Source: Octopus vulgaris (taxonomy: Eukaryota). From it: DNA of 64,000 nt. Under the pieces are notes generated by a model. The model was not told the DNA's origin, did no database searches, and saw only the letters and a program-made list of their open reading frames with translations. Below, one piece after another: positions 4,590 to 64,000 of the stretch. The first letter of the stretch is position 1; each line of letters opens with the position of its first letter. The translations under genes and the position numbers were made by a program. The stretch lies in assembly GCA_951406725.2 (NCBI GenBank), contig OX597817.1:118668001-118732000 (forward strand), written 5' to 3'.

Positions 4590-6680
4590 CAGTGGTTATT
4601 AACCTTTTCACTACCACGCTTCGCCTAGGAATTTGTCCTTCTCTCCATTCCACGCCCCTCCCCTTGTATCTATGAATAAATTTCTTCCCAGATTTTAAAT
4701 AAAATCTAAAATATGTACTCAGTCTTTTTATTAAATATGAATTAGTCACTTAATACAAAATATAAATAATTTTATATATAATCACAATATACAAAAAGTG
4801 ATATACTTGACACTGCTTCTTAGTAAAAAAAAGTTTTTTTTATTGAATATGAATTAATCACATTATTAGTGAGATACATAAAGCCGCTTCTTAGCTACAG
4901 AATCTTGAATGCATGTTTGAATGCCAGAGAGTGCACAACGTAAGTCCATTTCAACGTTCAGCTTGTTTCTGTACTTATTCTTGACAGCAACGAGCGTGGA
5001 AAATGTAGCTTCACAAAGATACATGGAACCAAACAGCTAAAATCCGAAGAGCCTGATGTGAGATCAGCGGTTAAACAGGAAGGTACCTGATTCAGTTCTT
5101 TGAAGTCTTCCTTAACTTGGGAGTTGAACTTCAGCTCAATAAACTCCTCTTGTACTTCATCTAAACCATCAGTCAAAAAGGTTCCTGATGAATTTCCAAG
5201 ATTCACGCTTTTCATCCATATCTGGGAAGTATCTGATGAATTCTGTTTTCAAGTCAGTTGGATGACTGATTATTTGTTTCTTTAATTCAGAATCAAGGTT
5301 ACCGTGAATGAGAGCAGAAACTAAGTAACTAAAACTGGCTGTATTCCTTCCTGAATTCGACATTTCCAGAGGTCGAGTTTGGCCATGAAGGTTCGAATAG
5401 CGTCGTGATGCTTTTGATGTTGATGGTTTTCCCTTGTAGTTTAAGGTCGAGAGCATTCAACACTTCGAAGATGTCCACCGGGCAAGCTAGAGATAGCCGA
5501 AAACCTTCTGACTGGAACTTGTCATGGAAATCTACTTTCTACTGCAAATCTAGAAATATTGCTACTTCTTGTACGTTCGTGTGAAAAAAGCAATATTTCA
5601 TTGTCAGATTCCGTATCTTTACACAACAGTTTGAAAAGACGTCTGTTTAAGGCTCTACCTTTAACAAAGTTGACAACCTTGACAGCCATGATCAGGATAT
5701 TTTCCATTTCAGTAGGTAAGGTTCGGATGTTAAGGCTTCATGATGAAGTAGGCAGTGTGCACCTAAAACAGATGGATTTTTTTTTCTACCTTAGTAATGA
5801 ATCTAGATTGCAGACCAAGCATAGATGGAGCTCCATCAGTGCACACACATACCAGCAAATCCCACGAAAGTTGATTTCCTGAAAGAAGTTTGATACATCA
5901 CGAAAAATAGCAGCTGCTGTTCTACAACTATTCATAGGGTGACACAACACTTCTTTTACACAGTTGCCTAATACAAAACGAGCATATACCAGTAGCTGAG
6001 AACACTAGACGATGAGTGTCGTTTCGTCACACTGGATGGTAAAAACAGGAGAATTACTTGGTCGAGAATTTGATATTTGATGTCTTCAGACAAGTCGATT
6101 TTTCATTTGACTGTATTGTTTGATAGTAAAATCTGGGAAAGCTTGTTTGCGCTATCTTTCCCCAGAACTAGTTCTGCTTCACGGAGTGGACTTGGTCTTA
6201 CGAAATACTCTCCTATGTTATAGTTCTTCTTGCTCTTTGCATTCAACATGGCGATCTCATCTCATTGAAGTTTGTTACCGAAATACCCCACTACTTAGTT
6301 TGATTCTAGGAATGTCTTTTTGTTTCAAAGAATGCCTTGGGCTTGTCTGCGAGAGCTAGATGTGTCGTCTTCAAATGTCGTCTTAAGCGTGAGGGTCGCA
6401 TTTCATTACTGCTCAAAGTTCTGTAACATATCACACACTGGGGGATTTCTGTCTCACCCATTTGGAGGGACACGAATCCAAATCGGATATATTCGTCAAG
6501 TTACTTCCGTTTCTTTGCACTCATTGCGAATTGTTTGATGTGCAGTAGACAACACAAACATGTGAACAAAGGATAAGGGACGTGAAAGGTAATGTCAAGG
6601 CTCAAATTAGAACACTAGCCCTAGTTAGAACACTTGGAGTAAAATGTTCTGAAAAAAATTAAAACAAAAAAAATTGGAAT
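4590..6680 (-). mobile_element. Degenerate hAT (Buster/SCAND3-ZBED8-like) transposon, 3' portion with one TIR
   Basis: TIR CAGTGGTTATTAACCTT at 4590 beside an NNNTANNN-type flank (TTCTAAAT); minus-strand remnants VKVVNFVKGRALNRRLFKLLC, LKTEFIRYFPD, VQEEFIELKFNS and a CTDGAPSMLG motif; many stops and frameshifts. Confidence 0.85.
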
Positions 6681-6684
6681 ATCA

Positions 6685-9997: not shown

Positions 9998-10293
9998 TAT
10001 TTAGCGCACATGGCGGAGACGTAAACTGACCCCACCCCACCAAACTTAATTTTTTTTTTTTAACGGAATCGCACGTTTTCGGCTATGGAGATTCCCATTC
10101 TGAAAAAGAATTTTCAAATATCTCAACTTCAAAATTCCATCACACCCGCTCCCCTCCTTGAAATTTTGAAGTTGCGATTTTTGAAAATTCTTTTTCAGAA
10201 CTGGAATCTCCGTAGCCGAAAACGTGGGATTCAGTAAAGAAAAAATTAAGGTGGGGAGGGTTCTATTTACGTCTCCTTCATGTGCGCCAAATA
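9998..10293. mobile_element. About 296-bp near-perfect palindrome (foldback/MITE-like, probably Merlin-related)
   Basis: Left arm TATTTAGCGCACATGGCGGAGACGTAAA...CACGTTTTCGGCTATGGAGATTCC...CTTCAAAATT mirrors right arm AATTTTGAAG...GGAATCTCCGTAGCCGAAAACGTG...TTTACGTCTCCTTCATGTGCGCCAAATA. Confidence 0.85.
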
Positions 10294-10550
10294 CAAAGGG
10301 TAGGAGGATATGACAACGTAGGGAAGATAGGCCATCAAACGTGGGTTGTCGGGTGTTATAACACCACTGTGAAGAAAGGATTTTTACAGCACGTACCTGA
10401 CAGAAGCACAGCAACACTGGAAACTATAATAATAGAAAATGCGTTGCCCGCTACTGTAATTCATACCGGTAAATGGGCAAGTTATAGAAATTTACAGCAA
10501 CTTGGCTATATTCACCGAACGATAAGCCATTCACAGAACTTCGTTGACAC
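10285..10550 (+). pseudogene. Merlin / ISXO2 (IS1595-like) DDE transposase fragment
   Basis: WVVGCYNTTVKKGFLQHVPDRSTATLETIIIENALPATVIHTGKWASYRNLQQLGYIHRTISHSQNFVD matches the ISXO2 pattern WV.G...V.DR...TL..II...PG..I.TD.W.SY..L...H..VNH..FVD; catalytic TD reads TG. Confidence 0.9.
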
Positions 10551-10551
10551 T

Positions 10552-11036
10552 TGCGGGGGAGGGTGTCACTCAAGAATCACCGGATACCTTAGCCTGGACC
10601 GAAAACCCGAATTGGTCTTCGCAGTCTCCTGCGAAGGTCATATCGGAGGTCAACATGTCCAGGGTGTTGGGCTCCTTTACGAAGGACTTGTTTAGAGTCA
10701 ATTTTTGAGACCCCGACCGGGATCCGGAGCAGTACCTATAGGCAGCTCACAGCCTGGTCGGGGGCGAAGAAGAATAGGCTTAGCGCCGAAACATGTATAT
10801 ATTTGTAATGATTAATATTGTAGTCATTTTACACGAATTGTAAGAGGTTCATTGCCTCATGTAATGTATTGTTAAAAGACAATGTTATAGAGAAGCAGAG
10901 GGTCGTCGGGCGCTTTCTGTCTTCTCTCATCCTTATCCTCCTTGTATTATTATCATTCATTTCATTAATGTCTTGTCCAGCCCGCAAAGCTACCCAATCT
11001 ATGTACTGTCTTCATGACAAATTTAATGAAATAAAG
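10552..11036 (+). mobile_element. 3' part of a Tx1/L1-like retroelement (3' UTR and tail)
   Basis: Last 40 nt (ATCTATGTACTGTCTTCATGACAAATTTAATGAAATAAAG) closely match the tail of the Tx1/L1-like element ending at 13185. Confidence 0.65.
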
Positions 11037-11400: not shown

Positions 11401-11899
11401 ATTTGTTTTCATTCATCTCATTTTTGTATATTGTCAAGCCCGCAAATGCTTTTGCGTAAAGCCCTTGAGACTAATTTTATGAAATAAAGAAGCTTGTTTT
11501 TTCTCTGAAAGGAATTTTATCGTTTAATATTGGATTTGTTACTGTTGGACTTGTTATTGTATTTTTGGATTGTTATTATTGTTCAACTTTGTGCTGTTGC
11601 CGGGTGACAGAAATTGTTATTTCCTTTTGTAGCCATTGTGGCAATTTTTAAACAAAATACTGCGAAAAAACTGGACTTGTTAAAGTCATTTTAGACTTAA
11701 ATTTCGTTCACCTTCGGGGGCGGGATTTGAACTATCGTCGAAAAGTTTATAAACTATTTTTGCGAAAAATTATTATAGATTTTCCTTATGGAAAACCGGT
11801 TTTTGTGTTATATTTTCTTCTGTAATTAATTTCGACCGAGTATGTCGGTCGAATTATACATGAAAAATGCACTCCCGAAGAGGGTAAGAAGGATCTTTG

Positions 11900-13185
11900 C
11901 TTTTTATATAATGGCCTTACCTAACCTTCGTTGTTTGAATGTGTGTTGTGTGAGTTCGAAGTGGCAGCAGGCTTGTTTCCTCGACGACCTCAGATCACAC
12001 GATATACATGTGATGGTTGCTACAGAGACCAAGTTGGACAGTCTACAAACCTTCTCGCCTTTTCCGCTTTTTGTGGAAGGGAGGAAAGCCGCTTGTGAAG
12101 CGCTCTATCTGCTGCCAGAAACCGCTAAAGGGTGGGTTACGGATGCCTTGGCTGAAGATGTGAAAACTCTTTACCTGGATGGGGGGCAGGTGTGTTACCG
12201 CACGTCTGGTTCTACCTTCCGTGTTTAACGTCCTTAACGGATATTGGGGCATGGATCAAGCAGAGACTTAGGCTGGGAGACTGGCAATTGGAGTGCCGTC
12301 AGGCACTTCAGCGACTCTCTCGGGCGGGCAATGCCGGCAGCAGGAGTACCACCGCGGATTTTTATAGCGAGTTAGTGGGTTTTATGTCCGAAGACGCCTT
12401 GGAGGAGACCCTGGGCTACGATCAAAATCAGTTGATCAACCTGTTCAGAAGAACGTTCAGGCCGGGGTATCTGGATAATTACCAGAAATCCCTGGCGCGA
12501 CAGTGCTTCCGTGCGGCGTTACCTGTTCGAGACAAATTGTAAAGCACGGGAGTGCCGTCTCGCCGACATGTCCAAGGTGCGGGCATAACAGGGAAACCGT
12601 TTTGCACGCATTTGTGGAGTGTCCGATAGTTTCCACAGAACAACTGTTGTCATTGATGGGAAGAGTACAGCTATCATTTGAGTCTATCATCGTGATTGTG
12701 TCACCTCCCTCCCTTAACAGGAAAAGGAAGGCTTGTTTTTTCTACGTAGTAGCCATACTGAAAGAAACAGTATAGAAGACGCGTGTAAGAGGGATATTGG
12801 CAGATTCTTTCGTCTCCGGCCAGGGGTTCGTAAACTTTTTTAGTTACCACATCATAAGTAAGATCAGGCTGGAGAAGAGGTATCTGTCGCTGAGTAGGTT
12901 TGTAAAAGGATGGAAGCAAGTTGAGAGTGACCAGCACCAAGTAAGTGCGATCAGTGGTAGAAAGTAAAGGTTCCACCCAGATGGCTAGATTCCTTTCCCT
13001 CAGATGCAAATTGTTGCTTTTTGCAACAATATTTATGTAAATAATTTTTTAAATTACATCCGTAATCATATCGTTCATACGAACACTAATTTTTAACTAA
13101 AAGCAACTTCTTCACCCTTTGTGTTTGTCTGTCCTTGTTCGTCCCATCTGTGTACTGCCTTTATGGCAAATTTCATGAATTAAAG
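11900..13185 (+). mobile_element. Internally deleted Tx1/L1-clade non-LTR retrotransposon (APE endonuclease start and C-terminal zf-RVT/CCHC)
   Basis: N-terminal LRCLNV...DIHVMVATETKL (APE motifs); C-terminal ALPVRDKL...CPRCGHNRETVLHAFVECP; RT core absent; 3' tail ends ATTAAAG at 13185. Confidence 0.85.
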
Positions 13186-13870: not shown

Positions 13871-15665
13871 TAGTGGTTTTTAACCTGGAGGCCGTCAGTA
13901 ATTTCCAAGGGGCTCGCGAGCCCTTGAGAAAATTCAGGAATTCTGTAAATATATTTGTTATTCTCTTAACAATAGCATGGTCAAATAATGAGAAGCTTAC
14001 GAAAAACTGCAAAAGTATCCCCTTATACCTTTAGTTTTCTTATTCTATTATGTTAGCACGCTTACGCTTTACTGTACTTAGTGACCCCTTCATATCCCTC
14101 AAAACCCTCACTAATTCTGAATTTGCCTTTATTTATTTATTTATTTTTTGTTACAAGACTCAGGTTAAGAGTATAAAGCTTAGATATTATTATCGTGTGA
14201 AGACAAAAGTATTTTTCAGTTAATAGATGTACAACAAGTTTGATCCAGTTTTTATATGCATGAAATAATGCGATTCTCTAAAATCAAGACTCATGCTGAA
14301 ACATTATCAAATCATTATCATAACCTACTAAGAAATATTAACTTTATTTAAAAAATTGAAAATTATTTTAAAATTTTAGCAAAATGAAATGTATGATATA
14401 TTTGAAAATAGGAAATAAAACAAAGAGTATGAAATAAGTTCTAGTACGCTCAATTTAATAAATTCGCAAAAAAATTTTAAATACAGATTGGAAAAATAAA
14501 AAATTGTAACAATAAAACCAAAATTTTTTATATTAAATATTTATGCTAAAAATATGGTAAAATTTTGTAAGAAAAAAGTTATAATATAAAGCCAAATATT
14601 AAACTAAAATTCCGATTTAAATATAACAGAAAGTATTAGGTACAACAAAAAGTTATACAAAATCTTTTGTTTTTAAAGAATTTTTTTAATATTTTCGTAC
14701 AAATAAATACAATATTTCATTGTACAAATTTTAAGCATAACTTTCCTTTTAATTTAAGTTTTATTCCAATATTTTTGTTTTAATTTTTTTCTCAGAACAT
14801 TTTACTCCAAGTGTTCTAACTAGGGTTAGCGTTCTAATTTGAGCCTTGACATTACCTTACCCGTCCCTTATCTTTTGTTCACATGTTTGTGTTGTCCACT
14901 GCACAGCAAATAAGTTGAAATGAGTGCAAAGAAACGGAAGTAACTTGACGAACATATCCTATTTGGATTTGTGTCCCTTCAAATGGGTGAGACAGAAGTC
15001 CCCCAGTGAGTGATATGTTACAGAAGTTTGAACAGTGATGAAATGCGACCCTAACGTTTGGAACGACACTTCTTGCTCTCGCAGACAAGACCAAGGCATT
15101 CTTGGAAGCAAAGAGACATTCCTTGAAGTAAACTAAGTAGTTGGGCATTTAGGTAACAAACTTCAATGGTTTTTGAGGCTTCCTATGAGATCGCCATGTT
15201 GAATGTAAAGAGCAAGAAGAGCCATAACATAGGCGAGTCTCTTGTAAAACCAAGTCCACTCCGTGAAGCAGAACTAGTTCTGGGGAAAGATAGCGCAAAC
15301 AAGCTTTCCCAGATTTCACTATCAAACAATACAGTCAAATGAAAAGTCGACCACTTGTCTGAAGACATCAAAGATCAAATTCTCGACCAGTGTGACGAAA
15401 CGACTGACATCGTTCAGTGTTCTTGGCTACTGGTATATGCTCGTTTTGATTCAGGCAACTGTGCAAAAGAGGAAATATTGTTGTGTCACTCTATGGATAG
15501 TTGTAGAACAGCAGCGTCTATTTTTCGTGATGTATCAAACTTCTTTCAGGGAAACAAGCTTTCCTGGGATTCGCTGGAATGGGTGTGCACTGATGGAGCT
15601 CCATCCATGCTTGGTCTGTAATCTAGATTCATTACTAGGGTGCATTCGAATCATACCATCTGTGG
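13871..15665 (+). mobile_element. Degenerate hAT (Buster/SCAND3-like) transposon, 5' portion with one TIR
   Basis: TIR TAGTGGTTTTTAACCTGG after GTTTAGAA; remnants KSKKSHNIGESLVKP, QISLSNNTVK, QCDETTDIVQCSWLLVYARF, VCTDGAPSMLG; 14760-15660 is an inverted homologue of 5780-6680. Confidence 0.88.
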
Positions 15666-16008: not shown

Positions 16009-16515
16009 TCAGTTCATCCCATAAGTGCTGTCCGAATTTTAAATAAAGAAAACAAGTGATCAAATGTTATATTAAATAGAAATTTAATCATCAATGTACT
16101 TTCCCGGACTATCTATGACTTCCTTCCATCTATTTACAAACTTTTTGAACTTATCAATGTAAAACTCTTTTGGTTTCAAAGCGAAGAACTCTGAAATGTC
16201 AGTTTCTACCTCCTCCTGGCTTACGAAAGTTATGTCCCCCAAATGATTCTGTAAGCTACGAAACAAATGATAGTCTGAAGGAGCAAAGTAGGGAGAATAA
16301 GTGGATGAGGAATTTTTTTCCCAACCAAGCTCTTCGATCGTCTGTGATGTGATCTTTGCAGTGTGGGGTCGCACATTGTCCCGATGAAACATCACTCCTT
16401 TCCGATTCACTAAATCTTCAAAGCTAGTTCAAATGCTCTAATTGCTGACAGTAGACTTGAGCATTGATTGTTGCATTAGGTGGTAACAATTCAAAGTGAA
16501 TTACTCCTTTCAATC
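16009..16515 (-). mobile_element. mariner (DD34D) transposon, 3' fragment with TIR
   Basis: RKGVMFHRDNVRPH...YSPYFAPSDYHLFRSLQNHL...RWKEVIDSPGKYID; terminal TA-TCAGTTCATCCCATAAG. Confidence 0.92.
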
Positions 16516-18484: not shown

Positions 18485-18570
18485 GCAGCTGAGGATTGCT
18501 CTGCATTTTAAATTGATGTAATGATTGCATTGTTCACTTAAATGGAGTTGCATGAAACGATCGTACTCTG
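18485..18570 (+). ncRNA. Type I hammerhead ribozyme, degenerate copy of the 22665 family
   Basis: CTGAGGA (18489-95), long imperfect stem II, GAAA (18554-57), palindromic ACGATCGT, GUA triplet; weak stem I and U-U at 10.1/11.1; downstream CTTGTTGCTTATTTTGATTATA identical to the 22665 copy. Confidence 0.7.
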
Positions 18571-20010: not shown

Positions 20011-21114
20011 TCTTTGTGTGTGTGTCTTATTTTACTCATATCAGTCATTAAATTGCATTCTTACCTTCCGGAGATTAACCGAGGGATCTCCATTTTTGCT
20101 CCGTTCGAAATTTCAAAAGCATTCGACTCCCAGCAATCCATTAGTGTACAAATTAATACTGAAAATTCATAAATTTCAATAATATGAGGTACATTAAATT
20201 TAACTGAAAAACAAAACCTAACTTGAGATGAAACGTTAATTATAACACTTAGTTAAAATAAAATATTTCAGTTGATAATTTACAACTTCAATTTTACAAA
20301 AACTTAAATTAATCAAAAATATAACTTTAAATTAATACTTTTATATAGATAGGACCAAATTCTAAGTTTCTTAGTCCTTGAGCTTGATATCTGTTGGAAA
20401 TGCTTTTTATTTCAGTCTCTAACTTAACCAGAGACCGTCTAAATTTTCCTTGTTTCGACGTATCCAGTAGGTTCCTTTTCCACTGCAGTAAATTATTTAC
20501 ACCTCTGAAACCATTTTCCACTGTGAAAAATGGAATTGTAATATTAACTCACTAACCAAGTTAGTAGTATTCAATCGGTAACAAATCGCACCACAATTTC
20601 TTGTACTATCCATATATTTTTAACAAAGACGTCATTTATATTTTAGTCATTCTTTTTGGTACTTCATTAACCAAATAAAATAGTCCTGCTAGCAATGTTT
20701 ATGTTAGCAAAAGTGGAATCCTCATTTCTTTTAAATCAGGAAATCTGTGATTTAATCACTGGCTACTATTTCCTAATGATCGACAGTCCGAATGATCGTC
20801 AGTAAAGCATCATCAGTTACATCCAACTTTATCTTTTAACGTTTACGTTTCAGTCTTTGGACGATTGCCATGTTGAGGAAATGCCTTGAGGGGTTTAGTT
20901 AAGGAAATTGACACCAGTTCTTATTTTTAAAACTCCAAAACTTTTTTATATGCTACTGAACTCTATTTGTCGAACCGCTACTTTTGGGGGAGAAAAACAA
21001 AATCAAAAATGACACACGTACAAACACACTCATCACGCATTTAGAATCACACACGCACATATACACACATCTACACACATACGCACACACACATATATAT
21101 ATATACATATATAC

Positions 21115-21149
<35 letters not shown>

Positions 21150-21378
21150 ATTTCAACAATATTAAGGAATGGCCCTGATAGGCCATTCGACTCACTAGAA
21201 AGAGCAGTCAAACTCAAACCGCTAAATAGTAGTAATTTAGAAATCAAAGGAAAATTAAAAACATTTACCCTAATCATCCTTGGACAATGCATTGTTTCTA
21301 AACGATAATACTTATCGTTTTGTTTACCATGTAGGCAGTCATCGAAATTTTTGTTTGTCTTGTTGTCGAGATAGGCTC

Positions 21379-21471
21379 CCTTTCTTTCCTGATGAGAAGA
21401 TTGCATAATGCACCCTTTATTCCTTTGGAATGAAACCATGTTGTCTTCGAAACATATGTCGAGAGTAAAGG
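21379..21471 (+). ncRNA. Type I hammerhead ribozyme, apparently intact (predicted cleavage after C21460)
   Basis: Stem I CCTTT-CTTTC / GAGAG-T-AAAGG; core CTGATGA 21389-95; stem II GAAGA/TCTTC with internal hairpin TTTATTCC/GGAATGAA; GAAA 21449-52; palindromic stem III ACATATGT; GUC triplet. Confidence 0.9.
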
Positions 21472-21510
21472 AATTTTGTTAACATCTTCGTTCGACTCCA
21501 TTCTTTCATT

Positions 21511-21512
<2 letters not shown>

Positions 21513-21555
<43 letters not shown>

Positions 21556-21642
21556 TATACATATATATTCATATATATACATATATATAATATATATACA
21601 TATATATACATATATATTCATATATATAATATATATATATAA

Positions 21643-21687
<45 letters not shown>

Positions 21688-21790
21688 GTATATTTACATA
21701 TATAATAGATATAAACAATAAATATATACATATAATAAATATATATATAACCAATATATATATATATATATATATATTATATTATATTAA
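21513..21790. repeat. Degenerate (TA)n array (similar arrays about 22420-22530, 23395-23625, 27420-27557, 47181-47303, 61595-61659)
   Basis: Direct. Confidence 0.95.
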
Positions 21791-46419: not shown

Positions 46420-47178
46420 TGTCATCGTATTATGGCCACGCTGCAGCACCACCTTGGTGGTTTTAGTCGAACAAAACTATACGAATGCTTAATTTTAAAT
46501 CTGGTACTTATTCTAACGGCTTCTTTTGCTGAACTGCCAAAGTTAGGAGAGCCGAAACAAACCAACAGATGCAGTGGAGTGGTAGCGAGGAGGACCAGTA
46601 CAAAAACATGAGCACAAACACACACACACTTATATAAGCTTAATTTCCGTCTACCAAATTCATTCACAAGACACTAGTCGGTCCTAGTCTACATGAGTTA
46701 CCACGCAGATTGAAACCGAAAGTACAAAGTTCCAACGCGACTTCTTAGCCACACAGCCATGCCTGTGCCTATTTATGCGTGTGTTTGTATCTGTAGGCAT
46801 AGGTACGTATTTCTGTATATATTTCTTTAACTTAGTAGCTAACTTAGTGCTCTGACCATATTTAATCTGAAAAAGCTTCATAAACTCGTTCATATTTCAA
46901 AGTGTTTTAACTGAGGAAGATCTCACGAAACGTATGCATTTTCTATTATGTATTATACGGATCTGAAACGTGTGTATCAAATCATTTCAGAATATCACTA
47001 TTTGATTTGACTTTATTATTAAAATTAATACGACTCGATGCCAGGACAAACAAAATGGCCCAAATCTCACTTGTGTGGATACTCTAACGACGATTTGGAG
47101 TAGTTTATGTTTAACTAGTCGAAAACTCCGGTACCATGCACTACTTCTTAGCATAACACTGTGTGTGCATGTATGTTT

Positions 47179-47306
<128 letters not shown>

Positions 47307-47372
47307 CCGCGTGTGTATCGTTGGCGATTTTCTTTCTCCGACTTCCCTTCCTTGGACCTTTCCTTTTTCTAT

Positions 47373-47407
47373 GTTTCTGACGAAGAGCTCCGCTCGAAAC
47401 GTTAAAT
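47373..47407 (+). ncRNA. Minimal (Penelope-type) hammerhead ribozyme in a short element about 47305-47503
   Basis: GTTT-CTGACGA-A-GAGC-TCC-GCTC-GAAAC-GTT-AAAT; loopless palindromic stem III (AACGTT); element lies between (GT)n and (TA)n. Confidence 0.8.
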
Positions 47408-47500
47408 CCCCCTTCTTTCCTTTCCTGAGCGTCCAATAACACTATATTTGTTCTACGTCCTCGCGTTGTTGTGTTTTCTCCTTGTTCATGTTTGGAGTAG

Positions 47501-47537
<37 letters not shown>

Positions 47538-55499: not shown

Positions 55500-57906
55500 G
55501 TGAGCAAATCTAATTAAAAAGAGGCCACTTTTGGATTCTACAGGAAGAAACGTTTTTCAAATATAACCGCTGAACACACCACACGGAGTTATATTGGTAA
55601 AAACTGGCGACAGGAGATCATGGGCGTTACAGCAATTACGTAGTTCCGAAAAAACCTGCTGACATAAACTTTAAAGATACAATGGACATATTGTGTAAAA
55701 TGTTTAGTGAGAAAAGCTCGTTGTTCAATACACGTTGGAAATGTTTGAACCTAGAAAAGAACAACGAGGGAGACTACATCACATATGCTGGTAGAGTTAA
55801 CAGGGAATGTGAAAAGTTCAAGCTGGACGAATCAACGCCAGGTATGTTCTAGTGCCTGATATTTACTCAAGGACTAATAGCAGATGTAAGGACAGAAATT
55901 CTCGCTAAACTGGGACAAAATCAAGCCGTAACCCTGCAACAAGTGTCAGAAGAATGTGAAAGAATAGTAAATTTAAGACATGACAGAGAAAACTGAACAT
56001 AAAGATTGCTCCCAAGTGAAACAAGTGAGAAATAAGCAGAAAAGAAATGAAGTGTGTACTAAAATACAGCACAAGCAGGACAAGAATGAGAAAAAAAACC
56101 ATGTTTTGCATGTGGAATTCTACACCTGAGGAAAAACTGTCCATTTAAGAAAGCGGAATATTTCCGTTGTAGAAAAATTGGACATGTAAAAGCGCACTGT
56201 AAAACTAAGATGACAAAACGTTGGAACAAAGGAAAGAGTAAACAGTGTGCAATCGAAAGAGAATGGTAATGCAACGAAGAAAAAATTCGTAAACCTGAAA
56301 ATTAGAAATAGAAGATTAAAAATGCAGTTAGACACTGAAAATGATATTACCATTGTAAATGAAAAAACTTGGAAGTATGTCGGTAAACAGAAATTAATGA
56401 AATCTACAAAAGTCGCACATGATTTTACGAGTAATAGATTGTATTTTGTTGGCGAATTTGTTTGTAACGTAATATTTCGTGACCAAATGAAAAAGGCAAA
56501 ACATACGTGCTAAAATATTCAGTTGATCTATTCGGCACAGAATGGGTGGAACTATTCAAATTGTGGGATGCGCCCATAAATGTTTTGAGTGGGATGTTTT
56601 GAGTCGATTCAGTCGAAGATTCGAATGACGCTGAGGGACTGAAATGATAAATAAAATATTTATTTCCAGATGTTTTCTCGGCGGAACTGGGTTATTGCAC
56701 GAAAGTAAAAACAAAAATTGCAGTAAAACAAAGTGCAGTACCTGTATTTAAGCCAAAACAGAATGCACCGTTCGCGAAAAAAATATCCACGATAAAAAGT
56801 GAACCTTGGCCAAAAGTAGATGTTCCGTGGTCAAGATTTTGCTGGTCCTATAAACGATTCATACTACTTAGTGGTAGTTGATAGTTTCTCTAAATGGCCA
56901 GAAATTTGTGTCAAAAACCAACCCCACTCAACAGTGACAAATGTTTACATGAGCTGTTTGCGATATTTGTCACTCCAGACGCGATTGTGTCTAACAAGGG
57001 AACGCTATTTGTGTCTTTTGAATTTAAAAAGTTTTGTAAAACTTTCGTGGAAGAACATGTAACTACGGCGCCTTTCCATCCCAGATCTAATGGACACGCA
57101 GAACGCTTTGTCGATACGTTCAAGAGTGCTCTAAGAAAGTCGAATATAGAAGTTACGGATGAGATAGCTTTACAAAAATTCTTAAGAGTATACCGAGTGA
57201 CACCAAATTAAATACGCCAGCGGAGCTGATGTTTGCGAGGAAAATAAAATCAGTCTTCGACAAATTGTTACTGGGCAAGAAAAGAAAATACAGCAAGATT
57301 TTTCAAAATTTGTGAAAAGGTGTTTGAGAGGGCATATAAGAATGGAAAAGAGAGTTGGCAAGATGGCGTGATTACCAAACGCATAGGGAAAATGCTATAC
57401 TTGGTAAAAAGTAGAAAAAACTTATACAAGACACACACGAACCAACTGAAAAAAAGAGATTCGTTGAGAGCGAACCCAAGAGAATGGAAGAAACAATGGA
57501 ATTGTTATATGATACTTTTCAAGTACCAACGCCAATACTGGTGACTGAATCCCGGCGCATAAGCGTATGAAAAAGAAAATTGAAGTGGATGCCAAGCGAA
57601 AAATATATTGTGTAACTACGAAAAAAATTCAATGCGTGGAGGTGGGTGATATAAATATCATTGCTAATAAAAGAGATAAAATGATATTCGCTAAGAAAAA
57701 AAGAAAACCTTAAAAGGGAATATGTTGTGGGGATAATAGTGCTAATGGTACACCCCTCCCGCGTGATGAGTGGTATATACTAGTCACTATAAATAAAGTG
57801 ATACCGGTCAGTATAGAGGAAGAGTAATGTAGTAGGCGTTCTTAGATAGTCGTATCTTTACAGGTCTAACAACTATACTGCTATACTGACATTAAGGATT
57901 ACAACA
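55500..57906 (+). mobile_element. Ty3/gypsy (Mag-like) LTR retrotransposon, decayed; RT/RNase H deleted; 5' LTR absent
   Basis: gag KSSLFNTRWKCLNL, zinc knuckle CRKIGHVKAHC, protease MQLDT, integrase DFAGP..YLVVVDSFSKWPE, PFHPRSNGHAERFVDTFK, YRVTPN. Confidence 0.92.
57723..57906 (+). repeat. 3' LTR (184 bp)
   Basis: TGTTGT...ACAACA termini, preceded by a polypurine tract TAAAAGGGAA; contains TATAAATAAA. Confidence 0.85.
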
Positions 57907-62900: not shown

Positions 62901-64000
62901 ACTACAAATATTACTGTGTTTTGAGAGTTATACTGTGCTACACAATATATCTTTATATTTTTACCTTCTCTCTATGAATAGAGAGATGTAAACAACTTGG
63001 TCTTATATACGATGTACAGAAAAAGAGGGAACTAGCATTTGAGTTCCAATTTTCTGCTGGGTTGTCCCAAGTAATTCAGCCGATCAATCTCAATATGTCT
63101 ATGTGTATAAGTAGATGACTAGAGGTATATATTCATGTATGTACTAATATATATGTGTATACATATGTGTGTATATACATGTGTATGCATATCTATATAT
63201 ATATGTGCCTCTGAATCTTTGTAATTTATACACAGGACTTGAATTTATCCTTATGTATACACATATACGTAAGGAAATATTCAAGTCTTGAACACACAAT
63301 GAACGAATACTTTGTATCAAGAGAGAGAGAGAGGGAGAAAGATTTACTAACGGCTAGATTCGGAAGTGAAAAAGAAATCAGGTGTGATTTATGCAATAGT
63401 GAAACGCTCTAACTCGAAAAGATGACGGTACTATCTGTTACAGACATTTTAAAGTCGCAATTGCTTCCAGGTTTTGAGCTAACAACGTTTGTGTAGGAAG
63501 TTTTGAACATTATGTCCTCGATGTCAGACCTATGTCTGTGATGCTAAATTCCAGATGAGAGGTGGGTGGTAGGAACTCTACCTGTATGCAGATATCCCAC
63601 ACAGTGAATTTGGAATATAGAATATATATATCGTGCATAGAAGAGAGAGACGACCAATATTTGTATCTCAGAATGGAACAGGATGCGTGGGTTGTCTATT
63701 AGCAAATGGCAATGAACAGCATCTAGATTAAAATGAAATCCAAAAGATGCTGGATAATAGATAAAAGCACATTTCAATGATTCGAATTTTATTTGCATCT
63801 CGCTATTCATGTGATATCTTTTTGATGTTCGAGAGTAAAGGAAAGGCAATGACTCATTAGTTACCATTAACTATCAGTATGTAAACAGCTGGGATATTAG
63901 TGACTGAAAGTGGTCCTCTGGAAACCAGTGCTTACTGCGCATTAGTTATAAACTGCAGAGGAGGATACAAAATTATTTGTCAGCTGATAAATTAGCCTCC

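Follow-up and report, generated by a model that had tools for sequence, protein, structure and literature searches.

The most probable reading of the cassette described here, to which we give a probability of about 0.62, is that of a dispersed non-autonomous passenger of Penelope-like elements (PLEs), of the retrozyme type, copied into the TA microsatellites of octopus. It lies in the stretch of 64,000 nucleotides of Octopus vulgaris DNA that we analyzed as a whole (hereafter, the window), and its features are collected in Table 1. Passengers of (TA)n-inserting PLEs are an already known kind of element, and we saw no sign of a host function or of a new kind of system.

Table 1. Positions in the window of the cassette, its parts, and other hammerhead-like motifs.
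Feature	Position	Strand	Remarks
Cassette, a member of a non-coding, high-copy repeat family	21150..21513	+	364 bp, 35% GC
5' (TA)n array, with (CA)n ahead of it; putative insertion target	21093..21149
3' (TA)n array	21514..21787
8-bp hairpin at the 5' end	21167..21188	+	probability 0.99; no listed variant in its 8 pairs
Junction where this copy departs from the family	21298..21312	+	putative internal deletion
Segment with predicted pairing to the core of the ribozyme	21338..21347	+	possible blocker, short enough for chance
Stem I, 5' strand	21379..21388	+
Catalytic core CUGAUGA	21389..21395	+	no variant among those listed
Domain II, 53 nt	21396..21448	+	stem of 11 positions (one U.U, the others paired), then an internal loop and the apical hairpin 21419-21431
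GAAA core (21449-21452), palindromic helix III, GUC triplet	21449..21460	+	predicted cut after C21460
Stem I, 3' strand	21461..21471	+	bulged U21466
3' tail, from ribozyme to TA array; putative start region of reverse transcription	21472..21513	+	by analogy with PMC11167929 (available part)
Hammerhead-like motif, second family	18489-18565	+	helix III ACGATCGT; within ~240 bp between two TA arrays
Hammerhead-like motif, second family	22744-22672	-	helix III ACGATCGT
Hammerhead-like motif, 6-bp stem I	39328-39277	-	cut followed by a TA array at 98 nt
197-bp element between (TG)n and (TA)n	47305-47501	+
Minimal PLE-type hammerhead in the 197-bp element	47377-47403	+	stem II preceded by one extra nucleotide; ACGT as helix III

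As judged from its sequence, the cassette carries a complete type I hammerhead motif, for which cleavage is predicted. We took as criteria the CUGANGA, GAAA, and UH core, the pairs G10.1-C11.1 and A15.1-U16.1, and three helices with an open stem I. The original prediction, made from the sequence alone, had announced every core nucleotide, and all of them are present (21389-21396 and 21448-21460), with G10.1-C11.1 closing stem II at 21396/21448. The 8-nt palindrome described as stem III is ACATATGT (21452-21459), and C17 follows at 21460. Stem I has indeed about 10 bp and one bulge: 5 bp (21384-88/21461-65), the bulged U21466, and 5 further bp (21379-83/21467-71). In stem II, the GAAGA/TCTTC pairing continues with a U.G pair and, past a U.U mismatch, with four further pairs, and the second hairpin is the apical one, where 21419-23 pair with 21427-31. 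From the predicted cut to the 3' TA array there are 53 nt, close to the 50 nt first estimated. A loop 1-loop 2 tertiary contact is a feature of fast natural hammerheads, and the absence of a short loop 2 from the 53-nt domain II bears on this contact.

Such a motif is rarely matched by chance. With a strict type I descriptor, the cassette site is the sole match in the window. Block-shuffling the window 500 times gave 31 loose matches, one of which was as good as the cassette hammerhead. Searches of metagenome contigs with the core letters alone, a looser pattern that served as control only, resulted in 14 matches, none of them with both stem I and stem II of at least 4 bp. A family-specific pattern had no match in viral contigs or in metagenome contigs. 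Rfam (release 15) reported no hammerhead in the window at gathering score, and none among the 23 matches obtained with E values up to 10, probably because of the long domain II. Hence, the word canonical, used in the original prediction, suits the core of this hammerhead but not its 53-nt domain II or its lack of an Rfam hammerhead match.

The predicted folding depends on the context of the motif. For the isolated 101 nt, the pairing probability is 0.97 for stem I, 0.68 for stem II, and 0.01 for helix III, which stays at 0.01-0.03 in the monomer. When two copies are folded together, the minimum is a double hammerhead with an 8-bp helix III (-50.4 versus 2 x -21.5 kcal/mol). For the entire cassette, prediction makes the active fold rare (0.07 for stem I, 0.19 for stem II) and places it 3.2 kcal/mol above the minimum, partly because the possible blocker pairs with the core. 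Cleavage through a dimer, as first proposed, is thus plausible from these models, but it is not obligatory, since comparable invertebrate monomers with a 2-bp helix III are active according to the available part of PMC7229834. The same part describes the 2-bp helix III with a tetraloop as typical of invertebrate hammerheads, gives monomer cleavage of ~0.8 per minute in coral and ~0.1 per minute in mussel, and reports that axolotl hammerheads work much better as dimers. Dimer cleavage is also covered by a review (PMC6765202, in the section available). The two ends of the cassette had been described as near-complementary, and AAGGAATGG (21164-72) and CCATTCTTT (21498-506) could indeed form 9 pairs, one of them G.U. 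Yet the end-to-end helix has a predicted probability of 0.00, because its 5' arm is held in the local hairpin, and we rejected it.

The (TA)n arrays reported on both sides of the cassette are there. Taken alone, they are weak evidence for an element, since TA arrays are common throughout the window: we counted 37 arrays of (TA)8 or longer, with neighbors at most 600 bp apart in 17 of the 36 gaps. The cassette occurs once in the window, with neither a tandem unit nor a pseudo-LTR at the locus; a 15-nt match at 63829-63843 is not preceded by a core, and no second copy was found. There is no frame for a reverse transcriptase (RT) or GIY-YIG endonuclease inside the cassette, so that it does not qualify as an autonomous PLE. 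We also considered and discarded a coding role: the AUG within the hammerhead core opens only 13 codons, and a 109-codon frame on the minus strand has no Pfam match and a low Atlas score. No tRNA genes were found. As for a helper, no PLE reading frame was recognized by eye in the window's list of open reading frames. This copy has the size, composition, and content expected of a non-LTR retrozyme (150-450 bp, GC below 50%, non-coding), and it also has what is expected of an element mobilized by PLEs, i.e., a sense hammerhead near its 3' end and a 3' end at (TA)n.

To the single copy of the window can be added those of the sequencing runs. The cassette is partly present in 20 of the 24 runs listed, and the share of its words is 0.38 and 0.25 in organisms D and E. 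Alignment of contigs to the cassette at 80% likeness in four runs gave 2265 matching contigs in X1 (organism A), 1343 in X3 (organism B), 1951 in X4 (organism C), and 299 in X7 (organism A). These contigs fall in all four identity bands and cover all 29 bins in each of the four runs, which indicates a diverged multi-copy family; none of the best 32 of 5895 pieces spans the whole cassette. The contigs of X7, perhaps an RNA run, are not informative on expression. The contig counts in organisms A, B, and C agree with the many copies typical of metazoan non-LTR retrozymes, and copies per genome would number in the thousands, the summed contig depth not being a copy number. Three runs (X1, X3, and X4) have, among the best 24 of 397 rows, TA-rich loose ends ahead of position 21163, supported by 10-20 contigs per run with an agreement of 0.70-0.80. 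Hence, other copies of the family also seem to begin at TA tracts. These TA-rich family flanks concern the 5' side, and TA at the 3' flank is known from the copy in the window. One contig of X1 skips 46 nt within 21391-21438, i.e., most of domain II.

The cassette had been called a retrozyme-like monomer. It is indeed a solo copy of 364 bp and 35% GC from a high-copy family, but no head-to-tail joint was found among the four joints listed in the four runs, where contigs can show presence only. Three of these four joints change strand, with 1-2 contigs each at 80% likeness. The proposed search for tandem copies thus yielded many copies in the runs, one copy in the window, and no tandem joint among those listed. 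Arrays and RNA circles define the retrozyme class, and the element is known here from a solo copy and contigs, so that filing it under this class would be premature. One might consider a classical tandem retrozyme, in which head-to-tail source arrays, perhaps with TA spacers, would cut themselves into unit RNAs that circularize, this copy being a monomer offspring. The size and GC content fit the mussel units of 350-390 bp (PMC7229834, available part), monomers are common offspring of retrozyme families (10.64898/2026.07.22.740005, available part), contigs would break at a TA spacer and thereby fail to reveal head-to-tail joints, and the favored dimer fold is one that tandem transcripts would permit. 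We nevertheless regard this explanation as unlikely: besides the lack of head-to-tail among the listed joints and of a tandem unit at the locus, the 5' loose ends carry TA-rich letters and not the 3' end of the element.

This copy differs from its family around 21298-21312, a departure that is absent from the original prediction. Contigs end at 21298 with a loose end shared by three runs and resume at 21310-21315; a loose end before 21312 is seen in one run and one contig, and the depth dips at 21293-21305. None of the contigs listed bridges 21298-21312. Within the 13-nt filler at the junction, the right-hand flank recurs in inverted orientation, and this copy of the cassette appears to have suffered an internal deletion with a templated insert. 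It is likely a weak or silent offspring that probably lost an internal piece. The cassette might instead be the remnant of an autonomous PLE, either its 5' and 3' untranslated ends brought together when the reading frame was lost at the junction or its truncated 3' end. The unbridged junction would allow this, and Hydra-1 of Octopus bimaculoides is an element of 2507 bp lying in (TA)n without pseudo-LTR (PMC8557442, available part). The 3' end is also the deepest part of the family, the summed contig depth of the last 65 nt being 1.8-9.3 times that of the 5' part. However, immediately right of the junction the summed depth amounts to 0.71-1.39 times the value for the 5' part, and such a ratio of 0.7-1.4, although a rough measure, is unexpected if at least 2 kb of sequence prone to 5' truncation intervened. 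Similar depths on both sides of the junction together with a deeper 3' end favor a short element over a long coding one, and the depth profile favors many 5'-truncated copies or relatives sharing the 3' end. We therefore consider a PLE remnant improbable, a little more so than tandem arrays.

Judged by their letters, four further hammerhead-like motifs occur in the window, each shortly upstream of (TA)n, an arrangement known from published 3' ends of PLEs. They were absent from the original prediction, as were the TA inserts that bear them. After noticing further motifs, we wrote a looser descriptor (core, self-complementary helix III, and 2 bp of stem I), which has six matches in the window; 300 shuffles yielded 0.34 matches on average and never more than 4. 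A TA array follows the cut at 29-166 nt in five of the six (18489, 21389, 22744, 39328, and 47377), while 9.6% of background positions have one within 170 nt downstream. The P value of this enrichment is about 4e-5 with the 170-nt limit, which we chose post hoc, and about 2e-4 with 100 nt, where four of the six matches remain. The sixth motif (29829) lacks a stem II and probably arose by chance. The motifs at 18489 and 22744 align over 120 columns with 68% identity, share a common 3' end, and have a domain II of 54-58 nt, in which the stem II bases pair so poorly that both look decayed. Together with the one at 21389, they have a domain II of 53-58 nt, an 8-nt palindrome, and GCAT at positions 8-11 of domain II; three sequences are nevertheless too few to conclude on homology. 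Short tandem repeats of ~33-36 nt lie upstream of the 39328 motif, and a decayed hammerhead core is also found at 46911.

These motifs raise the idea of an overlooked subclass of octopus hammerheads, with a domain II of 53-58 nt and an 8-nt palindrome and at least two families in the window. Its members would be dispersed, non-tandem PLE passengers whose long arm docks the PLE protein and whose transcripts, made at separate loci, would cut one another as dimers in trans. This is a speculative proposal, on which we would place a small bet only. If true, the subclass has been missed by Rfam and by descriptors with short spacers, and thousands of solo copies would make up an RNA cutter that depends on concentration.

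The window contains other remains of transposons, among which we presume transposase-like frames and several SINE-like families. An inverted pair of ~900 bp (5788-6681 and 14762-15641) is 85% identical, and an endonuclease-like frame and an integrase fragment are among the remains at 10216-10695, 11830-12542, 16084-16428, and 56894-57211. The best match of the integrase fragment is an Octopus bimaculoides protein with 75% identity (two matches among seven candidates in one search).

The variation between copies can tell if the ribozyme matters to the family. Of the 41 variants that reach at least 5%, our table lists 40. Between 21366 and 21483, 25 of the 118 positions are listed as variable, and none of these is among the 15 core positions (P about 0.02); with a wider set of 29 positions, picked after seeing the data, P is 0.0003. 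Pairing is kept or gained in seven of the nine listed variants in helices I-III, including all three of stem II. In stem I, three of the five keep the pair and two, at 21465 (22-40% of depth) and 21470, break it as listed. The sole palindrome variant listed turns the pair into G.U and so still allows dimer pairing. Since the listed variants might reflect a handful of subfamilies and not separate events, they lend moderate support, at the level of sequence, to a hammerhead under selection in the source copies. A single-copy locus devoid of conserved structure, which would have spoken against the original prediction, is not what we observed: the family is multi-copy and its core has no listed variants. 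An identical 8-mer is found at 21364-21371 and 21457-21464, and the cytosine of its CpG is listed as variable at 21367 (~22-39% of depth) and not at the cut site 21460. That the family is real but its hammerhead a dead passenger or a chance motif, with mobility by other means, e.g., a LINE, is very improbable: it agrees with the rare active fold predicted for this copy, with lizard PLE catalytic mutants that inserted unchanged in vitro (PMC11167929, available part), and with the eight of nine Xenopus retrozyme dimers that were not cleaved (10.64898/2026.07.22.740005, available part), but shuffling gave one equal match per 500 windows and the core has no listed variants while its surroundings vary.

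We thus return to the passenger of PLEs, which could be copied as follows. A source copy would first be transcribed. A PLE that targets (TA)n would then, through its RT and GIY-YIG endonuclease, nick a TA array and start copying ~50 nt downstream of the ribozyme; if so, this start explains why the ends of the element's DNA do not match the cut site. Many copies would be left 5'-truncated, some with inverted pieces. The ribozyme would trim the precursor RNA, best when two copies pair via the 8-nt palindrome, and would be under selection in source copies. Parts of this scheme have precedents. In the available part of PMC8557442, Hydra and Naiad PLEs, some of them from octopus, are listed with (TA)n as their target, and Hydra elements have a sense hammerhead near their 3' end. 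The available part of PMC11167929 describes a lizard PLE that cuts AT-rich DNA, begins reverse transcription within the RNA downstream of the hammerhead, and has a hammerhead that needs the PLE's protein. In that of 10.64898/2026.07.22.740005, Xenopus retrozymes match PLE ends and include many monomers, and one of the nine dimers tested was cleaved.

The cassette adds a high-copy cephalopod family, invisible to standard RNA annotation, to the hammerhead elements tied to PLEs. It bears on the question of why such elements keep a catalytic core although the cut site does not coincide with the ends of their DNA, a question sharpened by the normal insertion in vitro of the lizard PLE without cleavage (PMC11167929, available part). 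The thousands of copies permit a covariation study, and the 8-nt palindrome permits an assay of monomers versus dimers.

Hammerheads in cephalopods have already been published, since the giant squid has 235 hammerhead 1 loci (PMC6962438, available part). We found no description of this family in the literature on hammerheads, retrozymes, and PLEs in octopus and other cephalopods; Repbase or Dfam may hold one. The published octopus Hydra-1 hammerhead and the last ~600 bases of four cephalopod Naiad entries gave no match by eye, and the exact look-up of nine motifs in published PLE ends gave one, the coral helix III. We thus rejected identity with the cephalopod Naiad or Hydra-1 ends present in the available part of these sources. 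That coral helix III, from a Hydra-clade PLE, is identical to the one of the 39328 motif, and the corresponding distance in the coral consensus is 97 nt (PMC8557442, available part). In the cassette, 21461-21497 has, by eye, 9- and 8-nt matches in the same order to the post-cut region of the coral Hydra-2 consensus in the same source, a resemblance that could reflect a common 3' signal or coincidence.

Compared with known systems, the cassette has the core letters and the three-helix layout of the Rfam hammerhead families and differs from them by matching no model. Like metazoan non-LTR retrozymes, it is short, GC-poor, non-coding, and present in many copies (PMC7229834 and 10.64898/2026.07.22.740005, available parts), and it has a sense type I hammerhead with a 2-bp helix III and a palindromic loop. 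The mussel units likewise have no usual nucleotides for the loop 1-loop 2 contact (PMC7229834). Unlike the retrozymes in these parts, it stands solo between TA arrays and has a branched domain II of 53 nt. With the minimal hammerheads of metazoan PLEs it shares dispersed single motifs, a palindromic helix III, and predicted dimer activity (PMC4209133, available part), and palindromic helices III are common (PMC4209133 and PMC3088659, available parts). Unlike the Hydra PLEs listed in the available part of PMC8557442, whose hammerheads have short domains II, it has no RT or endonuclease frame, and its hammerhead differs in sequence from that of O. bimaculoides Hydra-1. Yet, like the 3' ends of Hydra-clade PLEs, it has a sense hammerhead with a self-complementary helix III located ~50-100 nt before the end, the distance from cut to end being 47 and 97 nt, by eye, in two coral consensus ends. 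Its long domain II has a precedent in the same source, where the table includes a spike-moss PLE with a domain II of similar length.
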